NCBI GenBank assembly: GCA_050260515.1
Contig: JBLNCI010000006.1
Coordinates: forward strand, 37,273 to 101,272
Length of the DNA: 64,000 nucleotides
Source: Gemmatimonas sp.
GTDB taxonomy: Bacteria > Pseudomonadota > Alphaproteobacteria > SMXQ01
Direction of reading: 5' to 3'
Part shown: in pieces, positions 1-15,217 of the stretch
How the letters are laid out: the number at the start of each line of letters is the position of its first letter
Numbering within the stretch: position 1 is the first letter of the stretch
The notes under the pieces: generated by a model
Database searches by the model: none
Seen by the model: the letters and a program-made list of their open reading frames with translations, nothing else
What the model was told of the DNA's origin: nothing
Program-made: the position numbers and the translations under genes

Positions 1-95
1 ACTCTCCGTCTCGCTCCGATCGTACAGCCCGGCCGCTGATGAACCGGGCGCATCCGCCGCCGACATTAGGACGGGATGCGATCCGTGCAAGCGGT

Positions 96-189
96 TTGTC
101 CACAGGTCGCACGCGAAGGCTTGCCGTCCTTTCCGGAAATCGGCATCATTTCGGGTAATGATGGCCGCTCCCTCGCGAGCGGCCTTTTT
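96..189 (+). promoter_or_regulatory. Promoter-like + hairpin/T-run module, copy 1
   Basis: TTGTCCACAGG 96-106; TTGCCG 121-126; perfect palindrome TTTCCGGAAA 130-139 inside a 17-nt spacer; CATCAT 144-149; hairpin GGCCGCTC(163-170)/GAGCGGCC(177-184) followed by TTTTT 185-189. Same layout and spacing as 507-599 and 8454-8546. Confidence 0.5.
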
Positions 190-365
190 CATTTGGCATC
201 CGGAGCGGGCGCCTGACGCTCCGCCACCTCGGCGGCGTTCTCGTACGCGTCGACGAGGCGCAGGAGCGTTTCGCGCATCTGGATATCGGAGGTGGATTGC
301 GCGAGCCAGCGGACGTTGCTGGCCCGCTCACGGCAGTCGCGCACGAGATCGGCGTGAACCCACAT
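189..365 (-). CDS. Small (58 aa) helical hypothetical protein, paralog of the 54-aa ORF at 8280-8444
   Basis: ATG at 365 inside track ORF 189..530; G/C-rich third codon positions. MWVHADLVRDCRERASNVRWLAQ...RETLLRLVDAYENAAE shares an A-x-x-C/A..L-A...R-x-x-LL-x-L...Y...AE pattern with the ORF at 8280. Its stop codon overlaps the T-run of module copy 1. Confidence 0.5.
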   Translation of the reverse strand: MWVHADLVRDCRERASNVRWLAQSTSDIQMRETLLRLVDAYENAAEVAERQAPAPDAK

Positions 366-373
366 GGGACACT

Positions 374-688
374 CTACTGTCTCAACTGTCTCAGATCGCG
401 CCGGCCTCGAACGAGAAACCTGCGCGTCCAATACGACACCAGAAAACGGTGACGGGTCGATGACACCGCGGAGCGTGCTGCGCAGCGCTGACGTTCCGCT
501 GCCGACTTTCCACAGGGCACACGGGAACACTTGCCGTCGTTTCCGGAAATCGGCATCATTTTGAGTAATGATGGCCGTTCCTCGCGAGCGGCCTTTTTTC
601 TTTCGTATCGCCTTCGGACGCTCTCGCGAACGCGCATGGCGCGCTCGCGTCGTTCGCGCGCCAGATCGGCGTGAAATGACATACGCAT
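374..688 (-). pseudogene. Degenerate tandem copy of the 189-365 small gene (internal deletion, stop lost)
   Basis: Begins MRMSFHADLARERRERAMRVRE, the same N-terminal pattern and flanking DNA as the 189-365 copy, but the middle of the gene is missing. Where the paralog has CAAATGAAAAAGG (stop), this copy reads CGAAAGAAAAAAGG. The frame therefore runs on through module copy 2 to TAG at 374-376. Confidence 0.35.
507..599 (+). promoter_or_regulatory. Promoter-like + hairpin/T-run module, copy 2
   Basis: TTTCCACAGGG 507-517; TTGCCG 531-536; TTTCCGGAAA 540-549 in a 17-nt spacer; CATCAT 554-559; hairpin GGCCGTTC(573-580)/GAGCGGCC(586-593) followed by TTTTTT 594-599. Confidence 0.5.
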
Positions 689-805
689 CTCAGTAGCGCA
701 GATCGTGGTCCGCTCGTCGCGGGCTTTGAAAACGGGGCTCGACGTTCGATGCCGATGTGAGGCAGCCGCCTGATGTCGGCACTTTTTCTCCATGCACCCG
801 ACCCG

Positions 806-838
806 CGGCATGGCGTCTTGCACGCCATGCCGTCTTTC
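806..838 (+). terminator. Hairpin with T-rich tail in the terS leader
   Basis: Perfect 10-bp stem CGGCATGGCG(806-815)/CGCCATGCCG(823-832), 7-nt loop, followed by TCTTTC. Confidence 0.4.
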
Positions 839-847
839 AAACACCGG

Positions 848-872
848 AGCCGCCGAAAGGCGGCTTTCTTCT
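848..872 (+). terminator. Intrinsic-terminator-like hairpin 15 nt upstream of the terS start
   Basis: AGCCGCC(848-854) GAAA tetraloop GGCGGCT(859-865) followed by TTCTTCTTT. The terS RBS TGGAGGG (877-883) and ATG 887 follow directly. Confidence 0.55.
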
Positions 873-886
873 TTCCTGGAGGGCTC

Positions 887-1387
887 ATGAAACTCTCGCG
901 CAGGCCCGCCCGCTGGCTCGCCGTGCATCGCCCGCGGAAGTGCAACAAGCTGGCGACGCGCCGTGTGTGTGCGCTGATCCGCCAGGGCTTCGGACTCCGC
1001 GAGATCGCGCGACGGCCCGGAATGCCGACGCTCGACACGCTGACGCGCTGGATCACGGAGGAGGACGCGTTTCGCGTCGAGTACGACCGCGCGCGCCAGA
1101 CCCAGACCGAAGTCTATGCCGACGACGTCGTGGCGCTCGCCGACGCTGTCGCTGACGGAGACCTCGCCGGCGTCAAGCTGCGGGTCGACGTGCGGAAGTG
1201 GCACGTCGTGCTCACCCGGGGCGCCGCGCGCCCCGGCGGCGACAAGGGGCTGGTGGACGAAGAGGTGTTACGGCGGTTCGCGGCCGCAACGGAGCGGCTG
1301 GCACGATTCGAGGCCGACGAGCTCGGCGTTGGGCCGAAGGAAAATGCGCCGCAATCCGGCGATACCATGCACGAGGACGACCGATGA
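887..1387 (+). CDS. Terminase small subunit (HTH DNA-binding type)
   Basis: ATG 887 with GGAGGG RBS inside ORF 773..1387. HTH-like GFGLREIARRPGMPTLDTLTRWI. Stop overlaps the terL start (ATGA at 1384-1387). Position is immediately upstream of the large terminase. Confidence 0.65.
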   Translation: MKLSRRPARWLAVHRPRKCNKLATRRVCALIRQGFGLREIARRPGMPTLDTLTRWITEEDAFRVEYDRARQTQTEVYADDVVALADAVADGDLAGVKLRVDVRKWHVVLTRGAARPGGDKGLVDEEVLRRFAAATERLARFEADELGVGPKENAPQSGDTMHEDDR

Positions 1388-2817
1388 GGTGGGCGACACG
1401 GGATCTCGCCACGGTCACCGCGCTGGGCGGGTGCGCAAGCGATCCGCTCCGGTTCGTGCTGACCGCGTTTGCGTGGGGTGAGGGCGAGCTTGCGGACCAC
1501 GCCGGCCCGGACAAGTGGCAGACCGAGGTGCTGCGCGCCATCGGCGACCACCTCAGGCTCGAGAAACCGTCCCGGCCCTTGCGCGTTGCCGTCGCGTCTG
1601 GCCACGGCGTCGGCAAGTCGGCGCTCGTCGCGTGGCTCATTTTGTGGGCGATGACCACCCGGCCTCACCTCGCCGCGGTTGTCACGGCCAACACCCAGCG
1701 GCAGCTCGAAACGAAGACGTGGCGGGAGCTCGCGCTCTGGCACAAGCGGCTGGTGAACCGTCACTGGTTCGCCTGGTCGCAGTCGAAGCTGGTCATGGTC
1801 AATCATCCGGACACCTGGTTCGCCGCCGCGGTGCCGTGGTCGCGGGAGCGGCCGGAGGCTTTCGCCGGGCTGCACGGGCGACACGTGATGGTGATCTACG
1901 ACGAGGCGTCCGCGATCCCGAACGAGATCTGGGACGTGTCGGAAGGCGCGATGACGACCCCGGGCGCGATGTGGTTCGCCTTCGGCAATCCCACGCGCAA
2001 CACCGGGCGGTTCCGCGACTGCTTCATGAAGTCGCGTACCTGGACGCGATTCAAGGTCGACGCGCGGACGTCGCGGCTCGTGAACCAGGCGCAGGTGCAG
2101 GCATGGATTGCCGAGCATGGCGTCGACTCCGACTTCGTGCGCATCCGCGTGACCGGTCGCTTTCCGAGCCAGAGCAACTGGCAGTTCATCTCGCGGGAGC
2201 TGACGGATCGCGCGCGCGCATCGCCCGGCGTCCCCTTCGGTCCGCTCGTCATGGGCATCGACGTGGCGCGGTTCGGCGACGATCAGACGGTGTTCCTGCT
2301 GCGGCAGGGCGAGGCGATCAAGAGGATCGAGCGGATACGCGGCGCCGACACGATGCGGGTGGCCGGCCGCGCGGCCGAGGCCATCGACCGATCGCGGCCG
2401 GCCGCGGTGTTCATCGATGGCGTCGGTGTGGGCGGCGGAGTGGTCGATCGGCTGAAGCAGCTCGGGTTCCCCGTCATCGAGGTGAACGGCGGAAGCCGGG
2501 CGACGGACGATCGCCGCTATGCCAACCGCCGCGCCGAGATGTGGGCGCGCGTCCGCGAGTGGCTGCAGGCCGGCGGCTGCCTGCCGCGGGAGGATGCGGC
2601 CCTGGCGGATGAGCTGTGCGCCCCCGAATACGGCTACGACGCCAGCAATCGCATCATCCTCGAGAAGAAGGACGACATGAAGAAACGCGGGCTCGCGTCC
2701 CCCGACGCGGCCGACGCGCTGGCGCTCACCTTCGCCGATCCGGTGTGGGTGCCGGCCGACGACGAGCCGCCGCCGCGCATCGAGACCGTCGCCGACTACG
2801 ACCCGCTGAAATGGTGA
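1384..2817 (+). CDS. terL: Terminase large subunit
   Basis: Internal ATG 1384 of ORF 1198..2817. Walker A-like VAVASGHGVGKSALVAWL. ATPase N-half and nuclease-like C-half (IDGVGVGGGVVDRL, DAADALALTF) typical of phage TerL. Confidence 0.85.
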   Translation: MRWATRDLATVTALGGCASDPLRFVLTAFAWGEGELADHAGPDKWQTEVLRAIGDHLRLEKPSRPLRVAVASGHGVGKSALVAWLILWAMTTRPHLAAVVTANTQRQLETKTWRELALWHKRLVNRHWFAWSQSKLVMVNHPDTWFAAAVPWSRERPEAFAGLHGRHVMVIYDEASAIPNEIWDVSEGAMTTPGAMWFAFGNPTRNTGRFRDCFMKSRTWTRFKVDARTSRLVNQAQVQAWIAEHGVDSDFVRIRVTGRFPSQSNWQFISRELTDRARASPGVPFGPLVMGIDVARFGDDQTVFLLRQGEAIKRIERIRGADTMRVAGRAAEAIDRSRPAAVFIDGVGVGGGVVDRLKQLGFPVIEVNGGSRATDDRRYANRRAEMWARVREWLQAGGCLPREDAALADELCAPEYGYDASNRIILEKKDDMKKRGLASPDAADALALTFADPVWVPADDEPPPRIETVADYDPLKW

Positions 2818-2824
2818 CTTCGAA

Positions 2825-3361
2825 ATGGTGACGTCGCTGCGCCCCCTCGACCGCGACGCCGTCGCGTTCGTGGCTGCGCACATGCGCGCCTGCGACCGCG
2901 AGGAGATCTTCGCCACACGCTGGGACGACGATGCCAGCGCCATCGCCGACGAGACGGTAGCCTGCGCCCGCTTCGGCGTGGTCGCGTGGGCGTCGGGCGC
3001 GCCGGTCGCCGTCGTCTGCGCCATGCCGCTGTGGCCCGGCGTGTGGACGGTCGCGATGTACGCCACCGACGCCTGGCTGATGGTCGCGGGTGCGGTGACG
3101 CGCTGGATCCGCCGCGAGCTGATGCCGAATGTCGCGGCCACGGGCGCGCATCGGGTCGAGTGCCGCTCGCTGGCGTCGCACGGGACGGCGCACCGCTGGC
3201 TGGAACGGCTCGGCGGGCGCCGCGAGGCGACGCTCACCGACTACGGCCGCAACCGCGAATGCTTCTACGTCTACGCGTGGACCTTGACCGACCTGACAGG
3301 AGATCACGATGTGCTTCGACAGCCCCTCGCCACCGCCGCCGCCACCGCCGCCGGGTCCTGA
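2825..3361 (+). CDS. Phage protein with GNAT/acetyltransferase-like fold (resembles proteins annotated internal virion protein A in some T7-supergroup phages)
   Basis: ORF 2825..3361, ATG start. Lies between terL and portal. The pattern ...RWIRRELMP...HRVECRSLASHGTAHRWLERLG...REATL..YG is reminiscent of N-acetyltransferase-fold phage proteins. Function not verifiable here. Confidence 0.45.
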   Translation: MVTSLRPLDRDAVAFVAAHMRACDREEIFATRWDDDASAIADETVACARFGVVAWASGAPVAVVCAMPLWPGVWTVAMYATDAWLMVAGAVTRWIRRELMPNVAATGAHRVECRSLASHGTAHRWLERLGGRREATLTDYGRNRECFYVYAWTLTDLTGDHDVLRQPLATAAATAAGS

Positions 3362-3503
3362 CAACGCCTCGGTGGAAGCCGCGGCGCTTGCCGAGCGCGA
3401 CCGCCTGCGGCGGGCCAGGGGCCGCGCCGCGACCATCCTGACCGGCGGCCTCGGCGACACGTCGCCGGCCATGGCCGCGGTCAAGCGCCTGCTGGGCCAG
3501 TGA
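3309..3503 (+). CDS. Small (64 aa) phage protein with N-terminal Met-Cys and a polyproline tract
   Basis: AGGAG RBS at 3299-3303 and ATG at 3309; very high GC3. MCFDSPSPPPPPPPPGP...RRARGRAATILTGGLGD. Overlaps the end of the upstream ORF by 53 nt in another frame. Confidence 0.6.
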   Translation: MCFDSPSPPPPPPPPGPDNASVEAAALAERDRLRRARGRAATILTGGLGDTSPAMAAVKRLLGQ

Positions 3504-3530
3504 CGCGTCGATCTTTTCCACCCTTGAGCT

Positions 3531-3690
3531 CCCCCTCACCCTGACCCTCTCCCCGGTGGGGAGAGGGATTTCGACGAGCGACACCGGCCACCGTCGCGCG
3601 CTCACGATGCTCCCGCCGAGAGGCGGTCGAGGATTGGCGACGGGTCGCTCCGAAAACCTTCTCCCAGAGGGAGACGGTGGGGTGAGGGGG
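3531..3690. repeat. MITE/REP-like palindromic element inserted in the phage late operon
   Basis: Terminal inverted repeats CCCCCTCACCC (3531-3541) and GGGTGAGGGGG (3680-3690). Each end carries an adjacent hairpin: CCCTCTCCCC-GGT-GGGGAGAGGG at 3545-3567 and TCTCCC-AGA-GGGAGA at 3660-3674. It is non-coding and fills most of the 225-bp gap before the portal gene. Confidence 0.6.
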
Positions 3691-3728
3691 CTTCGTGCAC
3701 CCGCGAACCACAACCGACGAGACATCCG

Positions 3729-5333
3729 ATGACCGACCTTTCCCCGTCGGCGCTGATCGAGCGCGCCGACGCCCTGAAGTGCGAGCGCGCCGCGCTCGAG
3801 CGCACCTGGCAGGAGATCGCGCAGGTGCTGCGGCCGGCGCGCGCCGACTTCGGCCTGCCGCCGACCCAGGACCGGCCCGAGCGCCGAGTGTTCGACTCGG
3901 CACCGGTGCTCGCCGCCGACAACCTCGCCGCCGGTCTGTGGGGGATGATCACCAACTCCGCGAACGCGTGGTTCGAGCTGCGCCACCCGGTCGCGGCGGT
4001 GAACGACCGCCAGGACGTGCGCCTGTGGCTCGACGCCTGCACCCGCATCCTGCGCGAAGCCTTCGCCGCGAATGGCCAGAAGTTCTACGCGCGTGTGCTC
4101 GAGCTGTACCAGGACCTCGTCGCGTTCGGGACCGCGGTGTTCTACGTCGACGAGGTGCCGCCCAATGTGACCCGTGCGGCGAGCCTGCACTTCTCCTGCC
4201 GCCATCTCGGCGAGTGTCTGATCGCGGAGAACGAGCTCGGCGAAGTCGACACGGTGTACCGCCGGTTCGCTCTGACGGCGCGCCAGGCGCAGCGGAAGTG
4301 GGGCGAGGCCGCGGGGTCGCGCGTGGCGCGGGCGCTCGAACGCAACCGGCCCGAGGAGCGCTTCGAGTTCCTCCACGCCGTGCTGCCCAACGACGAGCGC
4401 GACCCGGCGCGGGCCGACGCGAAGGGCATGGGCTGGCGCTCGGTCGTGATCGCGGTCGACGACCGGCGCGCCGTGAGCGAGGGCGGCTACCACGAGTTCC
4501 CGTTCATGGTGCCGCGGTGGGCGACGTCGGCGCGGCAGGTCTACGGCGACTCGCCGGCACTGCTCGCGCTCGCCGACGTCAAGGTGCTGAACCGGATGTC
4601 GAAGACCACCGTCGTCGCGGCCGAGAAGACCGTCGACCCGCCGTTGCTCGCCGCCGACGAGCGGGGCCTGCGCGGCATCCGCACGACGCCCGGCGGCATC
4701 ATCTACGGCGGCATCGATTCGCAGGGTCGCGTCCGCTATCAGCCGCTGCAGACCAACGCCCAGGTGAATCTCGGGCTCGAGTTGACGGAACAGCGGCGTC
4801 AGGCGATCCGCGAGGCGTTCTACTCGTCGCTGCTGCTGATGGTCGCGTCGCCGAACGCGACCGCCACCGAGGTGCTGGCGCGCGAGCAGGAGAAGCTCCG
4901 GCTGATGGGGCCGCACCTCGGCCGCATCGAATCCGAGTTCCTCGACCCGTGCATCGATCGCGTGTTCGCGGTGCTGATGCGGTCCGGCGCATTGCCGCCG
5001 CCGCCGCCGGCGGTGCTGGCGGTACCCGGCCTCAAGGTCGAGTACGTGTCGCCGCTCGCCCGCGCCCAGAAGGCGCAGGAGGGTGAGGCCATCGTCCGGA
5101 CGTTCGAGGCGATGGCGCCCCTGATGGCCGCGGCGCCGAGCGTCGTCGACAATTTCGACGTCGACGCGGTCGCCCGCGCGCTGGCCGATGCGTACGGAAT
5201 GCCGGTGCGGGCGATGCGCGACCCGCAGCTCGTCGCGACGTTGCGGGCAAGCCGCGCGGCCACCGCAGCACAGATCGGCGCGTTGGCGACGCGAGGCGCG
5301 GCCGTCGCCTCGCCGGACGGAGCCGCGCGATGA
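3729..5333 (+). CDS. Portal (head-to-tail connector) protein, podovirus T7/BPP-1 type
   Basis: 534-aa ORF between terminase and scaffold. N-terminal ERTWQEIAQVLRPARADF...LAAGLWGMITNSANAWFEL pattern is as in podovirus head-tail connector proteins. Stop overlaps the next start (ATGA). Confidence 0.75.
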   Translation: MTDLSPSALIERADALKCERAALERTWQEIAQVLRPARADFGLPPTQDRPERRVFDSAPVLAADNLAAGLWGMITNSANAWFELRHPVAAVNDRQDVRLWLDACTRILREAFAANGQKFYARVLELYQDLVAFGTAVFYVDEVPPNVTRAASLHFSCRHLGECLIAENELGEVDTVYRRFALTARQAQRKWGEAAGSRVARALERNRPEERFEFLHAVLPNDERDPARADAKGMGWRSVVIAVDDRRAVSEGGYHEFPFMVPRWATSARQVYGDSPALLALADVKVLNRMSKTTVVAAEKTVDPPLLAADERGLRGIRTTPGGIIYGGIDSQGRVRYQPLQTNAQVNLGLELTEQRRQAIREAFYSSLLLMVASPNATATEVLAREQEKLRLMGPHLGRIESEFLDPCIDRVFAVLMRSGALPPPPPAVLAVPGLKVEYVSPLARAQKAQEGEAIVRTFEAMAPLMAAAPSVVDNFDVDAVARALADAYGMPVRAMRDPQLVATLRASRAATAAQIGALATRGAAVASPDGAAR

Positions 5334-5629
5334 AGGCGGGACTCGTCTGGATCGCCAACGCCTTCGGCCCGCGCCGCGGCGCCGCGATCGCCGCCGCATA
5401 CCGCGCGGTGTTCGCCGGCGATGAAGGTCGGCGTGTGCTCGCCGATCTCGCCCGCTATTGCCGGTTCGGTACCACGAGCTTCGTCGCCGGCGACCCGCAT
5501 CAGACCGCGTTCAACGAGGGGGCGCGCGACGCCTTCCTCCACATCGTCGAACTGACGGGCATCACGGCGACCGAGGCCGCCGATCTGCTCGCACTCGACC
5601 AGTCCCACTCGCAACAGGAGCCCACATGA
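5330..5629 (+). CDS. Bbp19-like small phage protein
   Basis: 99-aa ORF directly after the portal, as in BPP-1-type phages. VFAGDEGRRVLADLARYCRF...GDPHQTAFNEGARDAFLHIVEL matches my recollection of the Bbp19-like domain. Confidence 0.5.
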   Translation: MKAGLVWIANAFGPRRGAAIAAAYRAVFAGDEGRRVLADLARYCRFGTTSFVAGDPHQTAFNEGARDAFLHIVELTGITATEAADLLALDQSHSQQEPT

Positions 5630-6462
5630 CCGAAGTCACCACCACTCACGCTGCTCCGGCCGCGACGCCGGCCCCGACCGCAGCGAGCGCGACAGCCCCA
5701 GCCACAACCGCCGACTGGAGCGCGTCGTTCGATGCCGATGCGCGGGCGCTGGTCGCGGCGAAGGGTTGGCGCAGCCCGGCGGACGCGCTCAGGAGCTACG
5801 CCCATCTCGAGCGGCTGATGGGTGGCGACCGCATCGCGGTGCCCGCGGCCGACGCCGCACCCGACGCGTGGGAGGCGGTCTACGCGAAGCTCGGTCGGCC
5901 GGCGAACGCCGACGGCTATCGCCTGCAGCGGCCCGAGGGCTTCGACGGCTACTCGGAGGATCTTGCCGCGGGATTCCGCCAGGCGGCATTCGCCGCCGGC
6001 TTGTCGGACCGCCAGGCCCGGACGCTGCACGACTTCTACGTCGCCACGGCGGCCGAGCGCGCCGACGCCGAGGCCGAGCAGGCGCAGGCGGCGAGCGCGG
6101 CGCTCGACCGCCACCTGCGCGCGACGTGGGGTCCGCAGTACGAGGCCAACGTGGCGCTGGCCAGGCGCGCGGCCCGCGCCTTCGCCCCGCCCGAAACGCT
6201 GGATGCGCTGCATGGGGCGATGGACGCGCCGGCGGTGCTGGCCCTGTTCGCGCGCATCGGCGCGGCGATGGGCGAGGACCGGCTGGTCGGCGACGGAGAT
6301 TCGTCGCACGCGCTCGCGCCCGAGCAGGCGCGCAGCGAGATCGCGCGGATCGAAGGGCAGATGACCGATCCCCGCAGCGCGCTGATGGACCGCTCGCATC
6401 CCGAGCACGACACGCTGGTGCGCCGCCGCGACGCGCTCTACCGCCTGGCGTTTCCGGGGTGA
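5626..6462 (+). CDS. Capsid scaffolding protein
   Basis: ATG 5626 (ATGA overlap with upstream stop) inside ORF 5458..6462. Ala/Glu/Arg-rich helical 278-aa protein in the canonical scaffold position. Confidence 0.6.
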   Translation: MTEVTTTHAAPAATPAPTAASATAPATTADWSASFDADARALVAAKGWRSPADALRSYAHLERLMGGDRIAVPAADAAPDAWEAVYAKLGRPANADGYRLQRPEGFDGYSEDLAAGFRQAAFAAGLSDRQARTLHDFYVATAAERADAEAEQAQAASAALDRHLRATWGPQYEANVALARRAARAFAPPETLDALHGAMDAPAVLALFARIGAAMGEDRLVGDGDSSHALAPEQARSEIARIEGQMTDPRSALMDRSHPEHDTLVRRRDALYRLAFPG

Positions 6463-6559
6463 GGGGATCGGGTGCGGCGCGCTTTCCTTTTGGCCGCACC
6501 TGTGGCGTGATGCGGCGGCTCACAACTGTCGCGACCACCAGGCGAGCACTCGGGGGACC

Positions 6560-7255
6560 ATGACGACGCATCCGCATCACCGCCAGAGCTACAGGTACTA
6601 CGACCTTCTCCTCGGCGCGTTCATCACCGTCTACCTCTGCTCGAACCTGATCGGCCCGGCGAAAGCCGTGTCGATGTGGGGATTCACCTTCGGCGCCGGC
6701 GTGCTGTTCTTCCCGATCTCCTACATCTTCGGCGACGTGATGACCGAGGTGTACGGCTACGCCCGCGCGCGCAAGGTGATCTGGTGCGGGTTCGGCGCGA
6801 TGATCTTCGCCTCGATCATGGCGACGGTCGTCGTCAAGCTGCCGCCGGCGCCGGGGTGGCCGTTCCAGTCGGCCTACGAGGAGATCTTCGGCCAGACGCC
6901 GCGGATCGTTTTCGCGTCGCTGGCCGCGTTCTTCGCCGGCGAGTTCGTGAATTCCTACGTGCTCGCGAAGATGAAGGTCTGGACCGAGGGGCGCTGGCTG
7001 TGGACGCGCACCATCGGCTCGACCATCGCGGGCGAGGGCGTCGATTCGCTGATCTTCTATCCGCTGGCGTTCTACGGCACCTGGGAGACGCCGCTGGTGA
7101 TGAGCGTGATGATGACCAACTACGTGCTGAAGGTGCTGGTCGAGGTGGTGATGACGCCGGTGACCTACAAGATCGTCGGCGCCCTGAAGCGATCGGAGCA
7201 GGAGGACTACTTCGATACCAAGACCGACTTCACGCCGTTCAGCCTGAAGACGTGA
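6560..7255 (+). CDS. yhhQ: Queuosine-precursor (preQ0/preQ1) transporter YhhQ, DUF165/VUT family
   Basis: 231-aa polytopic membrane protein. FPISYIFGDVMTEVYGYARARKVIW and RTIGSTIAGEGVDSLIFYPLAFYG motifs are characteristic of YhhQ-family proteins. A host-type gene inside the phage head module. Confidence 0.8.
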   Translation: MTTHPHHRQSYRYYDLLLGAFITVYLCSNLIGPAKAVSMWGFTFGAGVLFFPISYIFGDVMTEVYGYARARKVIWCGFGAMIFASIMATVVVKLPPAPGWPFQSAYEEIFGQTPRIVFASLAAFFAGEFVNSYVLAKMKVWTEGRWLWTRTIGSTIAGEGVDSLIFYPLAFYGTWETPLVMSVMMTNYVLKVLVEVVMTPVTYKIVGALKRSEQEDYFDTKTDFTPFSLKT

Positions 7256-7262
7256 GGCGGCG

Positions 7263-8195
7263 GTGACGACGTCTGCGAGGCCGGCAACGCCGGCGACGGC
7301 TGCGGCGCGAGTCCGCCTCGCGTACGTGATCGCCGCCTTGCCGCCGCTGTTCTGGGCCGGGAACTTCCTGATCGCGCGCGCCATGCGCGACGCGATCCCG
7401 CCGCTCGAGATGTCGTTCTGGCGCTGGACCGTCGCGTTCCTGATCCTGTTGCCGTTCGGGGTCGGGGCGATCCGTTCCAGTCTGCCGCAGATCCGCCGCG
7501 AGCTGCCGATGCTGAGCGTGCTCGCGCTGCTCGGGGTCACCGGGTTCAGCTCGCTGGTCTACGTCGCGTTGCACCACACGACAGCGGTCAACGCCGCGCT
7601 GATCAACTCGCTGATGCCGGTCGCCACGTTCCTGTTCGCGCTGGCGCTGCTGCGCGATCGGCCAACGGCGGCGCAGACCGTCGGCGTGGCGCTGGCGCTC
7701 GCGGGTGCCTCGACCATCATCGCCCGCGGCGAGATCGGCAACGTGCTGGCGCTTGACGTCAACCGCGGCGAGCTCCTGGTGATCGCGGCGCTGGTGTGCT
7801 GGGCGCTCTACACCGTGCTGATCAAGTGGCGCCCGACGCGGCTCGCGCCGTCGGCGTTCCTGCCGGTAACGTTCGGGATCGGCGCCGCGTTCCACGTGCC
7901 GTTCGTTGTCTGGGAGCGCCAATGGTCGGGCGGGTTCGCGGTGACGACGGAGGCGGTGGCGGCGATCCTCTACTTCGCGGTGTTCCCGTCGATCCTCGCG
8001 TACGTGTTCTGGAACCGCGCCGTCGCGGCGCTCGGGCCCGGACGCACCAGCACCTACATGTATTTGATGCCGATCTTCTCGGCGGCGCTCGGGGTCTGGC
8101 TGCTGGGGGAGCCGTTCGGCGCCTACCACGCCGCCGGCGTCGGCCTGGTGTTCGCCGGCATCGCTCTCGTCACCCGGCGGCCGAAAGGCGCCTGA
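7263..8195 (+). CDS. EamA/DMT-family transporter
   Basis: 310 aa, about 10 predicted TM helices, two EamA-like halves (LFWAGNFLIAR..., ...LLGEPFGAYHAAGVGLVFAGIALV). GTG start at 7263 is uncertain. Confidence 0.8.
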   Translation: MTTSARPATPATAAARVRLAYVIAALPPLFWAGNFLIARAMRDAIPPLEMSFWRWTVAFLILLPFGVGAIRSSLPQIRRELPMLSVLALLGVTGFSSLVYVALHHTTAVNAALINSLMPVATFLFALALLRDRPTAAQTVGVALALAGASTIIARGEIGNVLALDVNRGELLVIAALVCWALYTVLIKWRPTRLAPSAFLPVTFGIGAAFHVPFVVWERQWSGGFAVTTEAVAAILYFAVFPSILAYVFWNRAVAALGPGRTSTYMYLMPIFSAALGVWLLGEPFGAYHAAGVGLVFAGIALVTRRPKGA

Positions 8196-8279
8196 CGATC
8201 ACTTGATGTCCCGTTTGATCCAGATCAAAGCCGCGGACGAGCCGGCGCGGAGAATGCCCCCTCATTGGGAGGGGATATC

Positions 8280-8444
8280 ATGGTCTACAGCGCCGAGAGC
8301 TTCGTTGACCGCGCCGAGGAATGCGTGCGGCTGGCCAATCTCGCCGAGGACGAACTGATCCGGCAGGAGCTTCTGCAGCTCCGCCAGTCGTATCTCCAGA
8401 CCGCGGAGCGGCTGCAGAAGATCGCGCGCGGCGCGAAGAGGTAA
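8280..8444 (+). CDS. Small (54 aa) helical hypothetical protein, paralog of 189-365
   Basis: Not in the ORF track (below cutoff). ATG 8280 preceded by GGGAGGGG; nearly all third positions are G/C. MVYSAESFVDRAEECVRLANLAEDELIRQELLQLRQSYLQTAERLQKIARGAKR; TAA at 8442-8444. Confidence 0.6.
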   Translation: MVYSAESFVDRAEECVRLANLAEDELIRQELLQLRQSYLQTAERLQKIARGAKR

Positions 8445-8453
8445 CGCGAGACT

Positions 8454-8546
8454 TTCCACAGGGCGGCCGCCGACGGTTGCCGTCCTTTCCGGAAATCGCT
8501 ATCGTTTTGCATCATGATCGGCGTCGGGTCTCCCGGCGCCGATTTT
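8454..8546 (+). promoter_or_regulatory. Promoter-like + hairpin/T-run module, copy 3 (ahead of the major capsid gene)
   Basis: TTTCCACAGGG 8454-8464; TTGCCG 8477-8482; TTTCCGGAAA 8486-8495 in a 17-nt spacer; TATCGT 8500-8505; hairpin ATCGGCG(8517-8523)...CGCCGAT(8537-8543) with inner CGGG/CCCG pairs, followed by TTTTCATTTTC. Confidence 0.5.
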
Positions 8547-8735
8547 CATTTTCGGGCACCTTCCGGTGCCGCGTTTCGGGGCAAGCCGCGGCCACTCGTC
8601 CGGTGGAGCGGCTCCCGTGACCGCCGCAAAGCCGGCCGACGACGGCATCGTCATGCCGAGGACCGCGGGTCCGCGCTCGTGAGAGCCGGGCAACCCCTCC
8701 GACCGAATCGCAACCCGACTCACGGAGGGCTCTTC

Positions 8736-9599
8736 ATGAGCACCCAGATCACGACCGCGTTCGTCGAACAGTATTCGGCGAACGTGCTTCAGCTTTCGCA
8801 GCAGCGCGGAAGCCGGCTGCGCGCCGCCGTGCGCGTCGAGCCGGTGACCGGCAAGACCGCGGTCATCGACCGCATCGGCGTGGTGGCGGCGAAGCGCCGC
8901 ACCTCGCGCCACGCCGATACCCCGCAGCTCGACACGCCGCACTCGCGCCGGCGCGTGTCGCTGGTCGACTACGACTGGTCCGACATGATCGACGACGCCG
9001 ACAAGGTGCGGACGCTGGTCGACCCGGCGAGCCCGTACGCCATGGCCGGCGCATGGGCCATGGGCCGGGCGATGGACGACGAGGTCATCGCCGCGTTCAC
9101 CGGCGCGGCGAGCGCCGGCGTCGACGGCTCGGTGTCGGTCGCTCTGCCCGGAACGCAGCAGATCGCCCACGCCTCGGCGGGGCTCACCATCGACAAGCTG
9201 CTCCAGGCGAAGGAGCGGCTCGACGGCGCGGACGTGGACGACGCGATGGCGCGCTACGTCGCCGTCACCGCGAAGCAGGTGACCAACCTGCTCTCGGCCA
9301 CCGAGGTGAAGTCCGCCGACTACAACACGGTGAAGGCATTGGTGCGCGGGGAAATCGACACCTTCCTCGGCTTCAAGTTCATCCGCACCGAGCGGCTGGG
9401 CAAGGATTCGGGCGGCAACCGTCAGGTGATCGCCTGGGCCGAGGACGGGGTCGTGCTCGCGGTCGGCAAGGAGCCGGTCGCGCGCGTCACCGAGCGGGCG
9501 GACAAGAACTACTCGACCCAGGTGTTCTACTCGATGGCGATCGGCGCGGCCCGCCTCGAGGAGGCCAAGGTCGTCGCGATCGCCTGCGTCGAATCGTGA
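8736..9599 (+). CDS. Major capsid protein
   Basis: ATG 8736 with GGAGGG RBS inside ORF 8514..9599; 287 aa. Position after scaffold. MSTQITTAFVEQYSANVLQLSQQRGSRLR... and C-terminal ...YSTQVFYSMAIGAARLEE are typical of podovirus coat proteins of this group. Confidence 0.75.
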   Translation: MSTQITTAFVEQYSANVLQLSQQRGSRLRAAVRVEPVTGKTAVIDRIGVVAAKRRTSRHADTPQLDTPHSRRRVSLVDYDWSDMIDDADKVRTLVDPASPYAMAGAWAMGRAMDDEVIAAFTGAASAGVDGSVSVALPGTQQIAHASAGLTIDKLLQAKERLDGADVDDAMARYVAVTAKQVTNLLSATEVKSADYNTVKALVRGEIDTFLGFKFIRTERLGKDSGGNRQVIAWAEDGVVLAVGKEPVARVTERADKNYSTQVFYSMAIGAARLEEAKVVAIACVES

Positions 9600-9624
9600 G
9601 CCGCAGCGGGCAGGAGAACCAGAG

Positions 9625-10068
9625 ATGACCGCTTACAAGTCCGACCAGGTGACGGGGCTCGACGCCACGCCGCCGTCGCTGCCCAAGGCCAACGAGCGCC
9701 ACGGCCGGGTGCGGCTCCACTACTGGAGCTTCACGACCGGGGCTTCCGCCGGCCCGGCGGTGAACGACACGATCGTCGTCGCCCGGCTGCCGCAGGGTGC
9801 CCGCATCCTCGGCGGCCGGCTCGCCAACGAGGCGATGTCGACCGGCGCCTCGACCGCGCAGGTGACGATCGGGGTCGCCGGCGACGCCGCTCGCTACCTC
9901 GAGGCGAGCTCGGTCGATGCGGCCGGAGGCGTGTCGTTCGCCGACACGCCGGCGCGCAACTTCGGCGACGAGTTCGCGGCGGCGACCGACGTCGTCGCGA
10001 CCGCGCTCGGCGAGGCGTGGGCCGCCGCCAGGAAGTTCAACGGCTACATCCTGTACGCCGTCGACTAG
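9625..10068 (+). CDS. Putative capsid decoration/cement protein (call based on position)
   Basis: 147-aa ORF directly after the capsid gene and followed by a strong terminator. BPP-1-type phages encode a cement protein at this position. No diagnostic motif recognised. Confidence 0.5.
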   Translation: MTAYKSDQVTGLDATPPSLPKANERHGRVRLHYWSFTTGASAGPAVNDTIVVARLPQGARILGGRLANEAMSTGASTAQVTIGVAGDAARYLEASSVDAAGGVSFADTPARNFGDEFAAATDVVATALGEAWAAARKFNGYILYAVD

Positions 10069-10093
10069 GCGTCCGGCCACGGACGCGTGACGA

Positions 10094-10122
10094 GGGCGGC
10101 GGGGCGACCCGCCGCCCTTTTT
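10094..10122 (+). terminator. Intrinsic terminator after the capsid/decoration genes
   Basis: Perfect 10-bp stem GGGCGGCGGG(10094-10103)/CCCGCCGCCC(10108-10117), GCGA loop, TTTTT 10118-10122. Confidence 0.75.
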
Positions 10123-10145
10123 CTTCATCCCGATCGGAATCCGCC

Positions 10146-10730
10146 ATGACCTCGGTCGTCGCCATCTGCAACCGTGCGCTCGACATGCTGGGCGCCGAGC
10201 CCGTGACGTCGCTCGCCGACAACACCAAGGCCGCGCGCCTGTGCGCGCGGAATTTCGACGCGGTCCGTGACGCGGTACTGCGCGCCTATCCGTGGAACGC
10301 GGCGGTGCGACGGGCGTCGCTGGCCGCGCTGTCGGAGCCGCCCGCGTGGGGTTTCGCGCGGCAGTTCCAGCTTCCCGAGGGGCCGGTGCCCGAACCGTGC
10401 CTGCGGATCCTCGCCATCGACGGCGAGACCTGCGGGATGCGCTACCGCATCGAGGGGCGACGCGTGCTCAGCGACGCGGCCGCGCCGCTCGATGTGCTGT
10501 ACATCGCGCGGATCGAGGATCCGGCGCAGCTCGATCCCATGCTGCAGGACGTGATCGCGACCCGGCTCGCGGCCGATCTCTCCTACAGCCTCACCGCGTC
10601 GGCCGCGCTCGGCCAGGCGCTGATGGAGATCTATCAGGCCAAGCTCGCCGAGGCGCGGGCGACCGACGCGCAGGAGGGCACCGCCGACCGTCTGTTCGCG
10701 AGCTGGGGCGTCGACGGAGACCAAACATGA
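10146..10730 (+). CDS. Tail tubular protein A / adaptor (T7 gp11-like)
   Basis: ATG 10146 inside ORF 10017..10730. ICNRALDMLGAEPVTSLADNTKAARLCARNFDAVRDAVLRAYPWNAA parallels T7 gp11 VNDILASIGEPPVSTLE...[22 protein letters not shown]. Confidence 0.7.
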   Translation: MTSVVAICNRALDMLGAEPVTSLADNTKAARLCARNFDAVRDAVLRAYPWNAAVRRASLAALSEPPAWGFARQFQLPEGPVPEPCLRILAIDGETCGMRYRIEGRRVLSDAAAPLDVLYIARIEDPAQLDPMLQDVIATRLAADLSYSLTASAALGQALMEIYQAKLAEARATDAQEGTADRLFASWGVDGDQT

Positions 10731-12973
10731 CGCGCGCCTCTCCGCTGCTCGCCTCGTTCAACGGCGGCGAGTGGTCGCCCAACCTGTACGGGCGCAGCGA
10801 TCTGTCGCGGTACGGCAGCGCCTGCAAGCGGCTCGAGAACTTCATCCCGCTGGTGCAGGGCGCGGCGACGCGGCGTCCCGGGACGCGGTTCATTGCCGCG
10901 ACCAAGGACACCGCCGGGGTCCGGCTGATCCCCTTCGAGTTCTCGATCGCCCAGGCGTACGTGATCGAGGCCGGCGACGGCTACTTCCGCTTCTACATGG
11001 GCGGCGGGCGCATCGAGACCGCGCCGGGCATGCCGTACGAGATCGCGACGCCGTTCCTTGCCCAGCACCTCGATCGCCTCAAGTGGACGCAATCGGCGGA
11101 CGTGCTCTACCTCTGCCATCCCGAGCTGCAGCCGCGCAAGCTCACCCGCACCGGTCACACCAGCTGGACGCTGACGCCGCTCGACGCCCAGGACGGCCCC
11201 TACCTCGACGTGAACGGGGACGCGGCGAAGACGCTTCAGCCATCCGGCACGACCGGGACGATCACCGTCACCGCCGCCGGATTCGCCCCGTTCGCGGCGA
11301 GCGACGTCGGCCGGCCGCTGCGGATCCGTCACGGCGTGACGTGGGGCTGGGCGCGGATCACCGCCTTCATGTCGCCCACCCAGGTGACGGCCGACGTGAA
11401 GGCCGCGTTCGCAAGCGCCACCGCCTCGTCGGAGTGGCGGCTTGGTGCGTGGTCGGCGGCGAACGGTTGGCCCGGGTGCGTCAGCTTCCATGAGGAGCGC
11501 CTGGTCTTCGCCGGGAGCCTCTCCAACCCGCAAACGCTGTGGCTGTCCGTGTCGGGCGAGTTCGAGTCCTTCACGCCGACGCGGCCCGACGGCACCGTAC
11601 TCGACGACTCGGCGATCACGGTCACCATCGCGGACGACCGGGTCAACGCGATCCGCTGGCTGTCCTCCGGTAAGGAGCTTGCCATCGGCACGGTCGGCGG
11701 CGAGTTCACCGCGGCCGCGTCGAGCCTCAACGAGGCGATCACGCCGTCCAACATCACCGTCCGCCGCGAAAGCACGATCGGCGTGGCCGACGCCATGCCT
11801 GTCCGCATCGGTCAGTCGGTGCTCTATGTCCAGCGCGCCCGCCGCCGCCTGATGGAGTTCGGCTACTCGCTCCAGAGCGACGGCCATGTGTCGACCGAGC
11901 TCTCGATCCTGGCGCGGCATCTGCTGCGGTCCGGACTGAGGCATATCGCCTGGCAGCAGGAGCCGTGGTCGGTGCTGTGGGGCTGCCGCGACGACGGCGC
12001 GCTGATCGGCGTCACGTACCTGCCGGAGCAGCAGGTTACCGGGTGGCACCGTCACAGCCTCGGCGGCACCGGCGTCGCCGTGCTGTCGCTGGCGACGATC
12101 CGTGGCTCCGATGGCGACGAACTGTGGCTCGCGGTCGAGCGCACCATCGGCGGTGTCCCGAAGCGCTCGATCGAGCTTCTGCAACCGGACTTTGCGCCGG
12201 ATGACGAGAGCAATCGCGGCGCCGCATTCTTCGTCGACTGCGGGCTGACGTTCGATGGAACGATGAACGTCGCGCTGACGCCGGGCGCCACGGCCGGCCC
12301 CGACGTGATCTTCACCGCTGGCGGCGCCGCCTTCGACGCCGGCAGCGTGGGACGCGAGATCCACCGCCGTTACGGTCCGGGCGACGCACGACTTGCCCGC
12401 GCGGAGGTGACGGCGGTCGCGTCCGCGACGCAGGTGCACGCGCGGATCATCGCGCCCTTTCCGGACACTGTGACGATTCCCGCCGGCAGCTGGCGTCTGA
12501 CCGCGAGCACGCTCGGAGGTCTCGACCATCTCGAGGGCGAGACGGTGCAGATCCTCGCCGATGGCGCGAGCCACGCCGACAAGCAAGTGAGCGGCGGAAG
12601 CGTCGTGCTCGACCGCAACGCGGCGGTCGCTCACGTCGGATTGCCCTACCGCAGCACGCTCGAAACGCTGTCGCTGGAGGCGGGGTCGCTTGCCGGCACG
12701 GCGCTATCCAAGGCGAAGCGCATCCATCGCGCCGCGGTGCGCCTACTCGACACGCTCGGCTGCCGGGTCGGGCGCGACGGCACCCTCGACGAAGTTCTGT
12801 TTCGCTCCAGCGCCGATCCGATGGACGAGGGGCCGCAGCTCTTCACCGGCGACAAGGTCATCGAATTCCCCGCCGGGTGGGATCGCGAGATGACGGTGAC
12901 CGTGCTTCAGGATCTGCCGTTGCCCTGCACCGTGACCGCGATCGTTCCCCAAGTGACGACCAATGACGGCTGA
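10727..12973 (+). CDS. Tail tubular protein B / nozzle (T7 gp12-like)
   Basis: ATG 10727 (ATGA overlap) inside ORF 10292..12973; 748 aa. Begins MTRASPLLASFNGGEWSPNLYGRSDLSRYGSACKRLENFIPLVQGAATRRPGTRF. Size and position match gp12. Confidence 0.7.
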   Translation: MTRASPLLASFNGGEWSPNLYGRSDLSRYGSACKRLENFIPLVQGAATRRPGTRFIAATKDTAGVRLIPFEFSIAQAYVIEAGDGYFRFYMGGGRIETAPGMPYEIATPFLAQHLDRLKWTQSADVLYLCHPELQPRKLTRTGHTSWTLTPLDAQDGPYLDVNGDAAKTLQPSGTTGTITVTAAGFAPFAASDVGRPLRIRHGVTWGWARITAFMSPTQVTADVKAAFASATASSEWRLGAWSAANGWPGCVSFHEERLVFAGSLSNPQTLWLSVSGEFESFTPTRPDGTVLDDSAITVTIADDRVNAIRWLSSGKELAIGTVGGEFTAAASSLNEAITPSNITVRRESTIGVADAMPVRIGQSVLYVQRARRRLMEFGYSLQSDGHVSTELSILARHLLRSGLRHIAWQQEPWSVLWGCRDDGALIGVTYLPEQQVTGWHRHSLGGTGVAVLSLATIRGSDGDELWLAVERTIGGVPKRSIELLQPDFAPDDESNRGAAFFVDCGLTFDGTMNVALTPGATAGPDVIFTAGGAAFDAGSVGREIHRRYGPGDARLARAEVTAVASATQVHARIIAPFPDTVTIPAGSWRLTASTLGGLDHLEGETVQILADGASHADKQVSGGSVVLDRNAAVAHVGLPYRSTLETLSLEAGSLAGTALSKAKRIHRAAVRLLDTLGCRVGRDGTLDEVLFRSSADPMDEGPQLFTGDKVIEFPAGWDREMTVTVLQDLPLPCTVTAIVPQVTTNDG

Positions 12974-13008
12974 TCGGCCGCTGGACACACCAAGAAAGGA
13001 TTTTTCCG

Positions 13009-13395
13009 ATGTGCTACATGGCCGCAATTCCGATCGCCCTGGCGGCGGCATCCACTCTCCAGAGCATGCAAGCCGCGCGCGCGCAGGCGTCGGCCCAGCG
13101 GCAGATCGCGGACGTCGCTCGCGAGCAAGGCCAGATCGCGGCGGAGGCCGTGCGAAATCGCTCGGCCGCGACGCTTGCGTCGGCGCGGGTGGGACTTTCG
13201 CGCGCGGGGATCACTCCCGACGGCTCGCCCGCGGATGTGCTCGCTGCCAATGCAGCGGCCGACGAGCTCGGCGCCCAGACCGCGGCGTGGCGTGGCCTCG
13301 CCCGCCCTGGACCGTATGGCGGCGCCGTCGCGCAATCGAATCTCCGAGCCGCGTCGCTTGCCATCCGGCAGCTCGGCTCGATGTGGGCCAACTGA
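13009..13395 (+). CDS. Small (128 aa) Ala-rich virion protein candidate, N-terminal Met-Cys
   Basis: ORF 13009..13395 lies between the nozzle and fibre genes, where T7 carries internal virion proteins. Hydrophobic N-terminus MCYMAAIPIALAAAS, then a helical Ala/Gln/Arg-rich region. Confidence 0.55.
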   Translation: MCYMAAIPIALAAASTLQSMQAARAQASAQRQIADVAREQGQIAAEAVRNRSAATLASARVGLSRAGITPDGSPADVLAANAAADELGAQTAAWRGLARPGPYGGAVAQSNLRAASLAIRQLGSMWAN

Positions 13396-13417
13396 TCCCA
13401 GCACTGGTGAGGAAGCG

Positions 13418-15199
13418 ATGACGATCTCCACCACCACGACTCGCGTCGCCTATGAGGGCGACGGGGTCACCACCGCGTTCGCGGTGCCGTTCCCGTTCTT
13501 CGCCGCCGCCGAACTCGAGGTCATCGACCGCACCGAGTCGTCCGGCGCGGAAACGACGCTCGCACTCGGCATCGATTACACGGTGACGGGAGGCCAGGGC
13601 GGGACAGGCACCGTCAGCGCTACCGCCGCGCCGCCGGCCGGATCGCAATGGGTGATTCGCCGGAAGACGGCGAAGACCCAGACGACCGACTACGCGCCCA
13701 ACGATCCGTTTCCGGCCGAGACCCACGAAAAGGCACTCGACCGCCTGACGATGATCGCCCAGGAGCTCGGGGAGGCCGCGGACCGTGCGGTCAAATTCCC
13801 GAAGACCGATGCCGCGACACTCTCCGCCACGCTCCCCCCGAGCGTCGATCGCGCGACGAAGGTCCTCGCCTTCGACGCGTCCGGCGCGCCGACGGTCGGA
13901 ACGATGACGCTCGCCGCCCTCGAGGCCGGGGCGACCGATGCCGCGGCCTCCGCCACCGCTGCCGCGGCATCGGCCTCCGCCGCCGCGACCTCGGCGACCG
14001 GGGCCTCCGCATCCGCCACATCGGCCGCGACCTCGGCCGCGGCCGCGCAGGCGGCGGCGGCCAGCGTCGGCTTCTCGGACGTGGTGTTCCTGACCGTCGC
14101 GGACAGCCCTTACACCATCACCGCGGCGCACAGCGGCAAGCTGTTCAACGTCGACACCTCGGGCGGGGCCTTCACGTTCAACCTGCCGCAGATCTCGACG
14201 CTGACGCTGCCGTTCATGGTCGGCATCAAGAAAGCGACCTCCGACGCCAACAACGTCACCGTCAATCGGGGCGGAACGGATCTTTTCGACAGCGGCGCGA
14301 GTTCCAAGACCATCGGCAGCGTGTTCGGGACGACGCTGATCCCCGACAAGGACCCGACCCCGGACAAGTGGACGGCGGCGGACTGGGCCGGGGCGTCGAT
14401 CGCCGGCAATAGCATCACAAACGGCCTGCTCGCCCAGATGCCGGCGCGAACCATCAAGGGCAACAACACCGGAGCGACCGCCAACGCCTCCGACATCGCG
14501 GCCGGTCAGCTGCCGGCGACGAACACGAATGACGCCGCCGCGTCTGGCTCCGTCGGCGAATACATCGAGGCCACGGCGAGCAACACGTCGGCCACGGTGA
14601 CGATGACCATCGCGTCGCCGTGCGTGGTGACGTGGTCGGCGCACGGCTTCTCGACCACGACCCCGACGCCGGTATTTTTCACGACCACGGGTGCGCTGCC
14701 GACCGGGCTCTCGGCCAACACGACCTACTGGACGATCCCGAGCAGCGTCACGCCGAACACGTTCCAGCTCGCGTCCTCGATCTCGAACGCCTACGCGGGC
14801 ACGGCGATCAACACGTCTGGTTCGCAGAGCGGGACGCACACCGCTTTGAACAATAACGCTCTCACAAACGGATCTGCGCTCGACTGCTTGGGCGTCCAGC
14901 TCACCGCCGGAGATTGGGACGTCGAGGCAATGGGCTATTTCACGTTCGGAGCGTCAACGACGACCACGTTCCAAAAAATCGCCGTCGCCACGTCCTCCAA
15001 CGCATCGGTGATCACGCCGGGGAAATTCCAGGCCAACTCCGCGACGATGCCGACGGGTCCGAGCGATTTCGGTCTAACGCTGTCGAGGGTCCGCTTCAGC
15101 CTGAACGCGACCACCATCGTGTATCTGAATACCCGCGCCAATTTTGCCGCGAGCACGGCCTACGGGTTCGGCACCATGACAGCCAGAAGGGTGAGGTGA
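13418..15199 (+). CDS. Tail fibre protein with T7 gp17-type N-terminal adaptor domain
   Basis: ATG 13418 inside ORF 13175..15199; 593 aa. RVAYEGDGVTTAFAVPFPFF...LEVIDR...DYTVTG...WVIRRKT...DRLTMIAQELGEAADRAVKFP resembles the T7 tail-fibre N-domain. Followed by an Ala/Ser/Thr low-complexity linker and a Thr/Ser/Asn-rich C-terminal domain. Confidence 0.75.
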   Translation: MTISTTTTRVAYEGDGVTTAFAVPFPFFAAAELEVIDRTESSGAETTLALGIDYTVTGGQGGTGTVSATAAPPAGSQWVIRRKTAKTQTTDYAPNDPFPAETHEKALDRLTMIAQELGEAADRAVKFPKTDAATLSATLPPSVDRATKVLAFDASGAPTVGTMTLAALEAGATDAAASATAAAASASAAATSATGASASATSAATSAAAAQAAAASVGFSDVVFLTVADSPYTITAAHSGKLFNVDTSGGAFTFNLPQISTLTLPFMVGIKKATSDANNVTVNRGGTDLFDSGASSKTIGSVFGTTLIPDKDPTPDKWTAADWAGASIAGNSITNGLLAQMPARTIKGNNTGATANASDIAAGQLPATNTNDAAASGSVGEYIEATASNTSATVTMTIASPCVVTWSAHGFSTTTPTPVFFTTTGALPTGLSANTTYWTIPSSVTPNTFQLASSISNAYAGTAINTSGSQSGTHTALNNNALTNGSALDCLGVQLTAGDWDVEAMGYFTFGASTTTTFQKIAVATSSNASVITPGKFQANSATMPTGPSDFGLTLSRVRFSLNATTIVYLNTRANFAASTAYGFGTMTARRVR

Positions 15200-15217
15200 T
15201 ATAAATGTCGGCAACCA

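Follow-up and report, generated by a model that had tools for sequence, protein, structure and literature searches.

A queuosine-precursor transporter gene with variable cargo between the scaffold-like and capsid genes of an HTVC010P-like element in an alphaproteobacterial genome

We analysed a window of 64,000 nucleotides (C6:37273-101272) from a 3.9-Mb alphaproteobacterial assembly with 68% G+C (G000, the source genome), in which a phage-type element of about 26 kb carries genes for two transporters and a small helical protein between its scaffold-like gene and its major capsid gene. The left flank of this slot is the scaffold-like gene (5626..6462), which matches phrog_3742 and phrog_458 and whose product is 31% identical (E=2e-34) to gp07 of HTVC010P, encoded there by the gene preceding the capsid gene. 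The right flank is the capsid gene (8736..9599), identified by PF19821 (Phage_capsid_2; E=1e-84); relatives start at M75 of the long open reading frame (ORF), which places the true start at 8736 rather than 8514. Compared with G001, a genome of the same genus, the scaffold-like and capsid products are 84% and 86% identical, respectively, and the capsid is about 60% identical to HTVC010P-type pelagiphage capsids. Left of the scaffold-like gene lie terS, terL, a gene for a 178-aa virion protein and a T7-type portal gene (PF12236, E=4e-130), and a 99-aa ORF (5330-5629) may stand for the Bbp19-like gene found at this place in relatives, judging by position only. To the right of the capsid gene are genes for the two tail tubular proteins, A and B, and for a fibre whose N-terminus is of T7 type, as well as lysozyme and GTA_holin_3TM holin genes. 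The cargo and the flanking head genes are every one on the + strand. An earlier note on this DNA had placed the cargo between the scaffold and capsid genes on the phage strand, and both the placement and the identities of the flanking genes hold.

The gene order terL, portal, scaffold, slot, capsid, tubular A and B agrees with that of the HTVC010P head module, to which these genes are also homologous. In HTVC010P a 58-aa ORF alone separates gp07 from the capsid gene, whereas 2273 nt lie here between the scaffold stop and the capsid start. The same gap was surveyed in 72 IMG/VR contigs with capsids 59-72% identical and measures 64-205 nt in 71 of them and 933 nt in the remaining one. Scaffold and capsid genes are thus normally adjacent, as the earlier note had assumed, and the 2273-nt gap is a clear outlier among viral relatives. 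Unlike HTVC010P and the 71 contigs, in which the gap is at most about 260 nt, the element holds 2.27 kb of cargo, and no replication module was found in it.

The first cargo gene, yhhQ (6560..7255), encodes a predicted queuosine-precursor transporter of 231 aa in the QPTR/COG1738 family. Its product matches Pfam Vut_1 (PF02592) with E=4.7e-55 over profile positions 2-151 of 152 and passes the NCBIfam equivalog TIGR00697, 'queuosine precursor transporter' (135.4 bits; cut-off 50.95), and database entries for relatives at about 70-77% identity are annotated in the same way. The assignment of 6560-7255 to YhhQ, which the earlier note had staked on such a profile search, is thereby borne out. Against the equivalog specific to E. 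coli YhhQ (NF008406, preQ0/preQ1 transporter), the product scored 53.8 bits, the cut-off being 252. By these profile matches it is a member of the QPTR family and no E. coli-type orthologue. It resembles chromosomal QPTR/YhhQ transporters in Pfam and NCBIfam family, in its 231-aa length and in having its closest relatives beside pagL. It differs from E. coli YhhQ (Zallot et al., 2017, cited in PMC6884629) in being a distant relative, in its phage-derived location and in that no preQ1 riboswitch was detected. A substrate other than queuosine precursors is quite unlikely for this Vut_1 protein: the Pfam family name, 'putative vitamin uptake transporter', and the score below the E. coli-specific cut-off leave room for one, as do the differences in substrate among QPTR members described in PMC11130926, but the TIGR00697 cut-off is passed by a wide margin and the annotated relatives point to queuosine precursors. 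A profile search of the genome found a single Vut_1 gene in G000, the yhhQ of the element.

The second cargo gene (7263..8195) starts 7 nt past the yhhQ stop and encodes a 310-aa transporter of the EamA/DMT (drug/metabolite transporter) family, an assignment of the earlier note that two tandem PF00892 domains (E=2.5e-48) confirm. The product reaches no NCBIfam equivalog cut-off, and the genes most closely related to it, at 55-64% identity, are DMT genes on alphaproteobacterial chromosomes. Downstream, an operator-like palindrome of 16 nt, TTTGATC-CA-GATCAAA (8214..8229), precedes by about 50 nt the gene for a 54-aa helical protein (8280..8444), and a hairpin on the + strand, CCCCTC/GAGGGG (8258-8274), covers the Shine-Dalgarno sequence of this gene; palindrome and hairpin both lie exactly where they had been reported. 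The palindrome occurs once in the 3.9-Mb genome, and its 14-nt core, TTGATC-NN-GATCAA, is kept upstream of the small gene in G001 and in the related locus L031. The hairpin is likewise found in G000, G001 and L031 with differing stem sequences, and compensatory changes in 4 of its 13 pairs are weak evidence for it, as they come from three sequences. The 54-aa gene and the palindrome move as one block, a cassette separate from EamA, and it is a guess that the product is a small regulator acting at the palindrome. The family of the 54-aa gene comprises 81 representative clusters at E<=1e-3, mostly of 54-80 aa. A profile search of the genome returned a weak second member, a 58-aa ORF at 189-365 on the minus strand of the window (E=0.0015), which adjoins the first copy of a promoter-like module described below; direct similarity by BLAST between the two genes is not significant (E=0.07), the family profile alone, and weakly, connecting them. 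We also considered the 54-aa gene as a homologue of HTVC010P gp08, the small ORF in the same slot there, and found no similarity.

Every chromosomal relative whose capsid is 85-91% identical has cargo between the scaffold and capsid genes, with yhhQ constant and its neighbours varying. In total, yhhQ was found in this exact slot in seven elements from different samples. The content is yhhQ-EamA-small gene in G000 and L031, yhhQ-EamA in L039, yhhQ-small gene-552-aa membrane protein in G001, yhhQ-DUF3859 in L020 and its 54-kb twin contig, yhhQ-DUF3859-methyltransferase-513 aa in L038 and yhhQ alone in a 27.9-kb ERZ1426828 contig. EamA is accordingly present in L031 and L039 and absent from G001, L020, L038 and the 27.9-kb contig, and homologues of the 54-aa gene occur in G000, G001 and L031 only, being absent from the other four of the seven. 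No match in Pfam or NCBIfam was obtained for the 552-aa membrane protein of G001. BLASTN comparison with G001 gave clean block boundaries: three blocks are collinear (yhhQ, the palindrome with the small gene, and the capsid leader), and EamA (7257-8210) and the 1.8-kb gene of G001 are both indels. Cargo cassettes (EamA, the small gene, the 552-aa gene, DUF3859 and the methyltransferase) thus vary among otherwise collinear elements. In a more distant relative (L036, G009:C15:66000-85999), 7.3 kb of host-type genes, including response regulator, PAS and PEP-CTERM genes, fill the slot. Judged by these gene orders, the slot is a cargo hotspot in chromosomal relatives.

The right edge of the slot is formed by a conserved control region of the capsid gene. 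A 73-nt promoter-like module is present in three copies, two in the terS leader (99-171 and 509-581) and one at 8455-8527 right after the small gene, and a terminator-like hairpin (8516-8544) ends the third. This third copy and the leader that follows it up to the capsid ATG make up the capsid leader (8455..8735, + strand), recognised by the repeat family and by conservation; the module copy and the 290-nt leader are conserved in G001 and L020. Past the module, about 190 nt (8545-8735) are strongly conserved in the same two relatives and include CCCCTCCG...CGGAGGG pairing around the ribosome-binding site. With a conserved promoter-like module and leader of its own, the capsid gene would head a separate transcription unit, with the cargo between units, and on these features the slot is the boundary of two transcription units. 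The earlier note had described the cargo as sitting unusually in the middle of a head module; an otherwise contiguous module is indeed interrupted, but the interruption falls at an operon boundary, the usual place for a moron. Phage morons and lysogenic-conversion cassettes are exemplified by bor and lom of lambda and by the morons of the HK97 family. Like morons, the cargo is made up of autonomous genes of host type, inserted between two conserved phage genes where two transcription units meet, is variable in presence and has, for each cassette, what appears to be its own 5' control region. Unlike the situation with typical morons, the carrier seems to be no complete temperate phage, and yhhQ, fixed throughout the clade and present in the cell as a single copy, behaves like a host gene that has been relocated.

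The origin of yhhQ was addressed with a maximum-likelihood tree that comprised the 70 database proteins closest to its product and four copies taken from loci. One clade (support 99/90) unites the five element-borne copies included. Four further contexts were looked up as a test: two more members of the clade lie in the scaffold-capsid slot, and two outgroup members are chromosomal. All tested outgroups are chromosomal, and 4 of 5 share a yhhQ-pagL-hydrolase(-SNase)-M48 peptidase neighbourhood, the fifth (L033) lying in another host neighbourhood. The nearest chromosomal genes are 80-88% identical to the element copy, and other genomes of the family have no yhhQ or one that is only about 30% identical. 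In G000 the pagL-hydrolase-M48 locus is on C36 (89300-92771), without yhhQ and without the SNase gene. In addition, a 5' motif of about 30 nt upstream of yhhQ (6482..6511, + strand), which reads CTTTCCTTTT-N8-CTGTGGCGWGAT and can also be written CTTTCCTTTT-N8-CTGTGGCGTGAT, is common to six element-borne and four chromosomal yhhQ loci. The single clade and the motif common to element and chromosomal copies point to a single capture of yhhQ with its native 5' region, and the simplest reading is that the gene was taken up once, about 80 nt of 5' region included, from the yhhQ-pagL locus on the chromosome of a related alphaproteobacterium. Two observations on the chromosomal loci may be added. On C36 a tRNA-like sequence abuts the 3' end of pagL, and no ORF with a clear coding signal was found in the 4 kb before it. 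The chromosomal yhhQ of G020 (L016 11670-12363; G020:C2:2107669-2108362), 88% identical, carries a frameshift near residue 162 that splits it, and is either a pseudogene or an assembly error.

The chromosomal copies also bear on a scenario raised by the earlier note, in which two phage remnants flank native host DNA and the cargo was never carried by the element. Related yhhQ genes in purely chromosomal contexts are what such a scenario would draw on, but they lie at another locus, the pagL-hydrolase-M48 neighbourhood. Moreover, the genes flanking the cargo are neighbours in one module and follow the HTVC010P order, yhhQ occupies exactly this slot in seven elements, and both the left and the right junctions are collinear with G001. 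The shared slot and the gene order contradict the scenario, which we consider to have almost no chance of being correct.

Selection on the cargo was estimated by pairwise ratios of nonsynonymous to synonymous substitution rates (dN/dS, NG86). They amount to 0.18-0.32 for yhhQ, 0.38 for EamA and 0.22-0.35 for the small gene, compared with 0.16-0.20 for capsid and portal and 0.10 for the flanking pyrC-like host gene. Values of 0.18-0.38 indicate that all cargo genes are maintained, EamA least strictly. Between L031 and L020 the capsid is 91% identical and yhhQ merely 81%; this incongruence of capsid and yhhQ distances indicates recombination between elements.

The 5' motif is probably the own promoter of yhhQ, as its conservation suggests. 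A terminator-like hairpin lies directly upstream (6470-6484), and in most copies the T-run of the motif is the tail of this hairpin. The motif matches no Rfam family, RNAalifold found no consensus structure in ten yhhQ 5' regions, and an Rfam search of window positions 1-20000 at E<=1 for a riboswitch, preQ1 or other, upstream of yhhQ returned only tRNA and one sub-threshold chance hit. The cargo could also be seen as part of the element's own programme, co-expressed with the late genes by read-through from the scaffold operon and helping particle production or the recipient, for instance through nucleobase uptake in lysis or membrane remodelling. The weak terminator upstream of yhhQ in G000 and G001, the strand shared with the late genes, the presence of yhhQ in every member of the element clade while its neighbours vary, and the weak paralogue of the small gene next to another copy of the late promoter module all fit such a role. 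We nevertheless judge it unlikely, as the 5' motif is also found on chromosomal copies without phage neighbours, the gene is the cell's only QPTR, and no mechanism ties queuosine-precursor import to particle assembly.

Genes for queuosine synthesis lie elsewhere in the genome. The only strong tgt is together with queA, queF and queC on C44, and queD is on C17 and C33. A genome search with the TGT (tRNA-guanine transglycosylase) family PF01702 returned the C44 tgt and a weak paralogue on C43, with none on C6; queC and queD profiles match other contigs only, folE and queE not having been searched separately. Pfam scans of the ORFs with clear coding signal, from the upstream host genes to the holin and thus across the element, found no TGT/DpdA or Que gene, and none was detected in the portions read of related elements. 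The earlier note had suggested that the importer might feed DpdA-type DNA modification and had proposed looking for dpdA/tgt-like and que genes in the rest of the element; that search came back empty, and its result speaks against the suggestion. The evidence favours the note's fallback, a simple effect of the cargo on the queuosine supply of the host.

Phage-encoded YhhQ homologues are already known, and in Enterobacteria phage CAjan yhhQ lies within a dpdA/queCDE/folE cluster (PMC6884629, PMC7544227). The element described here is like CAjan in that a COG1738/YhhQ-family transporter is found on a phage-type element. It is unlike CAjan, where yhhQ accompanies dpdA, folE and queCDE and is dispensable for modification, in that no dpdA or que gene is present and the transporter gene is in the head module. 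Searching IMG/VR with the single YhhQ protein gave nothing; an alignment of YhhQ retrieved 11 viral contigs at 36-62% identity, and no homologues of this element's structural genes were seen in the stretches of them that were analysed. Two IMG/VR contigs with yhhQ (L048 and L049) also carry queC- and queF-like genes. The C43 paralogue (about 238170-239220, minus strand, outside the window) is a 346-aa protein of the TGT superfamily with a weak arcTGT match; its identity to the TGT-like genes of two Sulfolobus viruses, STSV1 and STSV2, is about 25%, and that to a gene neighbouring queC, queF and yhhQ in L048 is 24%. A 397-aa ORF, for which no PDB match was obtained, precedes the paralogue, which could itself be a DpdA-like enzyme. 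That the importer serves 7-deazaguanine modification of phage or element DNA, as in CAjan, is a notion to which the known phage homologues, the two que-bearing viral contigs and the C43 paralogue lend some colour; it is nonetheless very improbable, given that the searches found no TGT/DpdA or Que gene in the element or on C6 and that the C43 paralogue sits on another contig amid ordinary host genes.

We next consider the carrier. The element begins some 9 kb before the start of the window, where host genes (glyQS, ppdK, glycosyltransferases, asnB and a pyrC-like amidohydrolase) reach C6:28261. The pyrC-like gene is followed, in order, by DUF6362 and DnaA_C-type helix-turn-helix (HTH) genes on the minus strand, an S24/HTH repressor, DUF4197, an Sf6-type terS, a copper cassette and terS. 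The interval from the pyrC-like gene to the holin yielded neither integrase nor replication genes. A tRNA-Thr (19412-19486) was examined as an integration site and has no repeat elsewhere on the contig; the 354-aa gene beside it is a 2-hydroxyacid dehydrogenase and no integrase. In G001 the pyrC-like flank, the S24 repressor and the order from terS to the fibre gene are the same, the comparison covering only two species; proteins of the element are 76-90% identical between G000 and G001 and the pyrC-like product 89%, a host-like divergence. With no integrase or replication genes found and the same locus in a sister species, the label 'prophage' given earlier is doubtful.

Gene transfer agents (GTAs) offer a further comparison. 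The GTA activator GafA/GafY carries a DnaA-like DNA-binding domain. In the element, the DUF6362 and DnaA_C-HTH genes beside the S24/HTH repressor (C6:28995-30060, minus strand) have a weak coding signal, with a G+C content at third codon positions below 0.75, and as a predicted pair they resemble the GafZ/GafY activators of alphaproteobacterial GTAs. Like the GTAs under GafA or GafY/GafZ (RcGTA and CcGTA; PMC11150451), the cluster has structural and lysis genes only, with a GTA_holin_3TM holin, DnaA_C-HTH and DUF6362 genes beside a repressor, promoter-plus-terminator leaders and a locus conserved in a sister species. Known GTAs of this class derive from HK97-type siphoviruses, whereas the present cluster is of podovirus type and is patchy in the family. 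Several relatives look decayed, which, like the patchy distribution, counts against a fixed GTA: the terL of the G009 copy L036 is split, G020 has an IS5-type transposase, and portal and scaffold go undetected in one group. Whether the carrier is a domesticated cluster or a long-lived defective prophage is a matter of roughly even odds, and in either case the cargo behaves as resident host genes.

Taken together, these results lead us to a reading that we hold to be probable, with appreciable doubt: a moron-type stack of cassettes at an inter-operon gap, in which yhhQ was captured once and now provides a host importer. The 2.27-kb insert would be a stack of independent cassettes, yhhQ, then EamA, then palindrome and small gene, placed between the packaging/portal/scaffold unit and the capsid/tail unit of an HTVC010P-like, podovirus-derived cluster. 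Within the element lineage yhhQ has been kept under purifying selection while neighbouring cassettes came and went, EamA probably being a later, less constrained addition. Expressed from its own promoter and independently of the late genes, yhhQ may serve the cell by importing preQ0, preQ1 or queuine for tRNA queuosine, adding to an intact de novo pathway, and the cargo would play no role in phage DNA modification. The element itself would be no active prophage but a resident cluster, possibly domesticated and GTA-like, and its cargo, if so, host genes nested inside.

Several findings weigh against this proposal. The host is able to make preQ0 itself, so salvage gives no obvious benefit, the E. 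coli YhhQ-specific model is missed, and a TGT-superfamily paralogue, possibly DpdA-like, exists elsewhere in the genome. Independent transcription of yhhQ is suggested solely by the conserved motif: a sigma-70 consensus scan found no promoter-like site for yhhQ, the motif fits the consensus poorly, and the upstream terminator hairpin is degenerate in G000 and G001, which makes read-through from the scaffold operon possible. A search of public sequencing runs for expression of the region returned none that contains it. The element is present in 7 of 25 family genomes, with three copies in G009, a distribution that fits mobility, and the disagreement between capsid and yhhQ histories likewise fits mobility, past or present, over simple vertical descent.

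If the proposal is correct, the locus offers a clean, datable case of gene capture in which the donor locus (yhhQ-pagL), the captured 5' region, the slot and the later turnover of cassettes are all visible, and the recipient genome now relies on the element-borne yhhQ as its sole copy. The tempting link to 7-deazaguanine DNA modification is removed as unsupported. A podovirus-type cluster with GTA-style regulators gathering host genes would, if true, widen the known kinds of domesticated phage elements. A bolder version of this picture is conceivable, and we offer it as speculative: the carrier may be an HTVC010P-like, podovirus-type GTA or domesticated cluster under GafY/GafZ-like control, with inter-operon gaps as landing pads for host genes, in which the lineage's sole queuosine-precursor importer has left its ancestral pagL locus for the head module and may be coupled to cluster regulation via the shared promoter/terminator modules and the small protein that goes with the palindrome.

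Some features of the element and its relatives lie outside the slot. The G009 copies represent a relative with 55% capsid identity; the terL of L036 is split in two frames, and a PEP-CTERM gene precedes its portal. In L021, L023/L037 (G018) and L034 (G020:C3), whose capsids are 74-77% identical, terL and capsid are about 3.5-5 kb apart with no portal or scaffold detectable between them; GH108-like and minus-strand genes occupy this interval, and in G020 the IS5-type transposase is found with an SH3-repeat gene. Finally, C6:32299-37337 (window -4973 to 65) holds the copper cassette (cupredoxin/CusF, CopCD and DUF1775), DUF4197 and the second, Sf6-type terS. An HWE histidine kinase takes the place of the copper cassette in G001, and by this comparison its position is another variable cargo slot of the same element.

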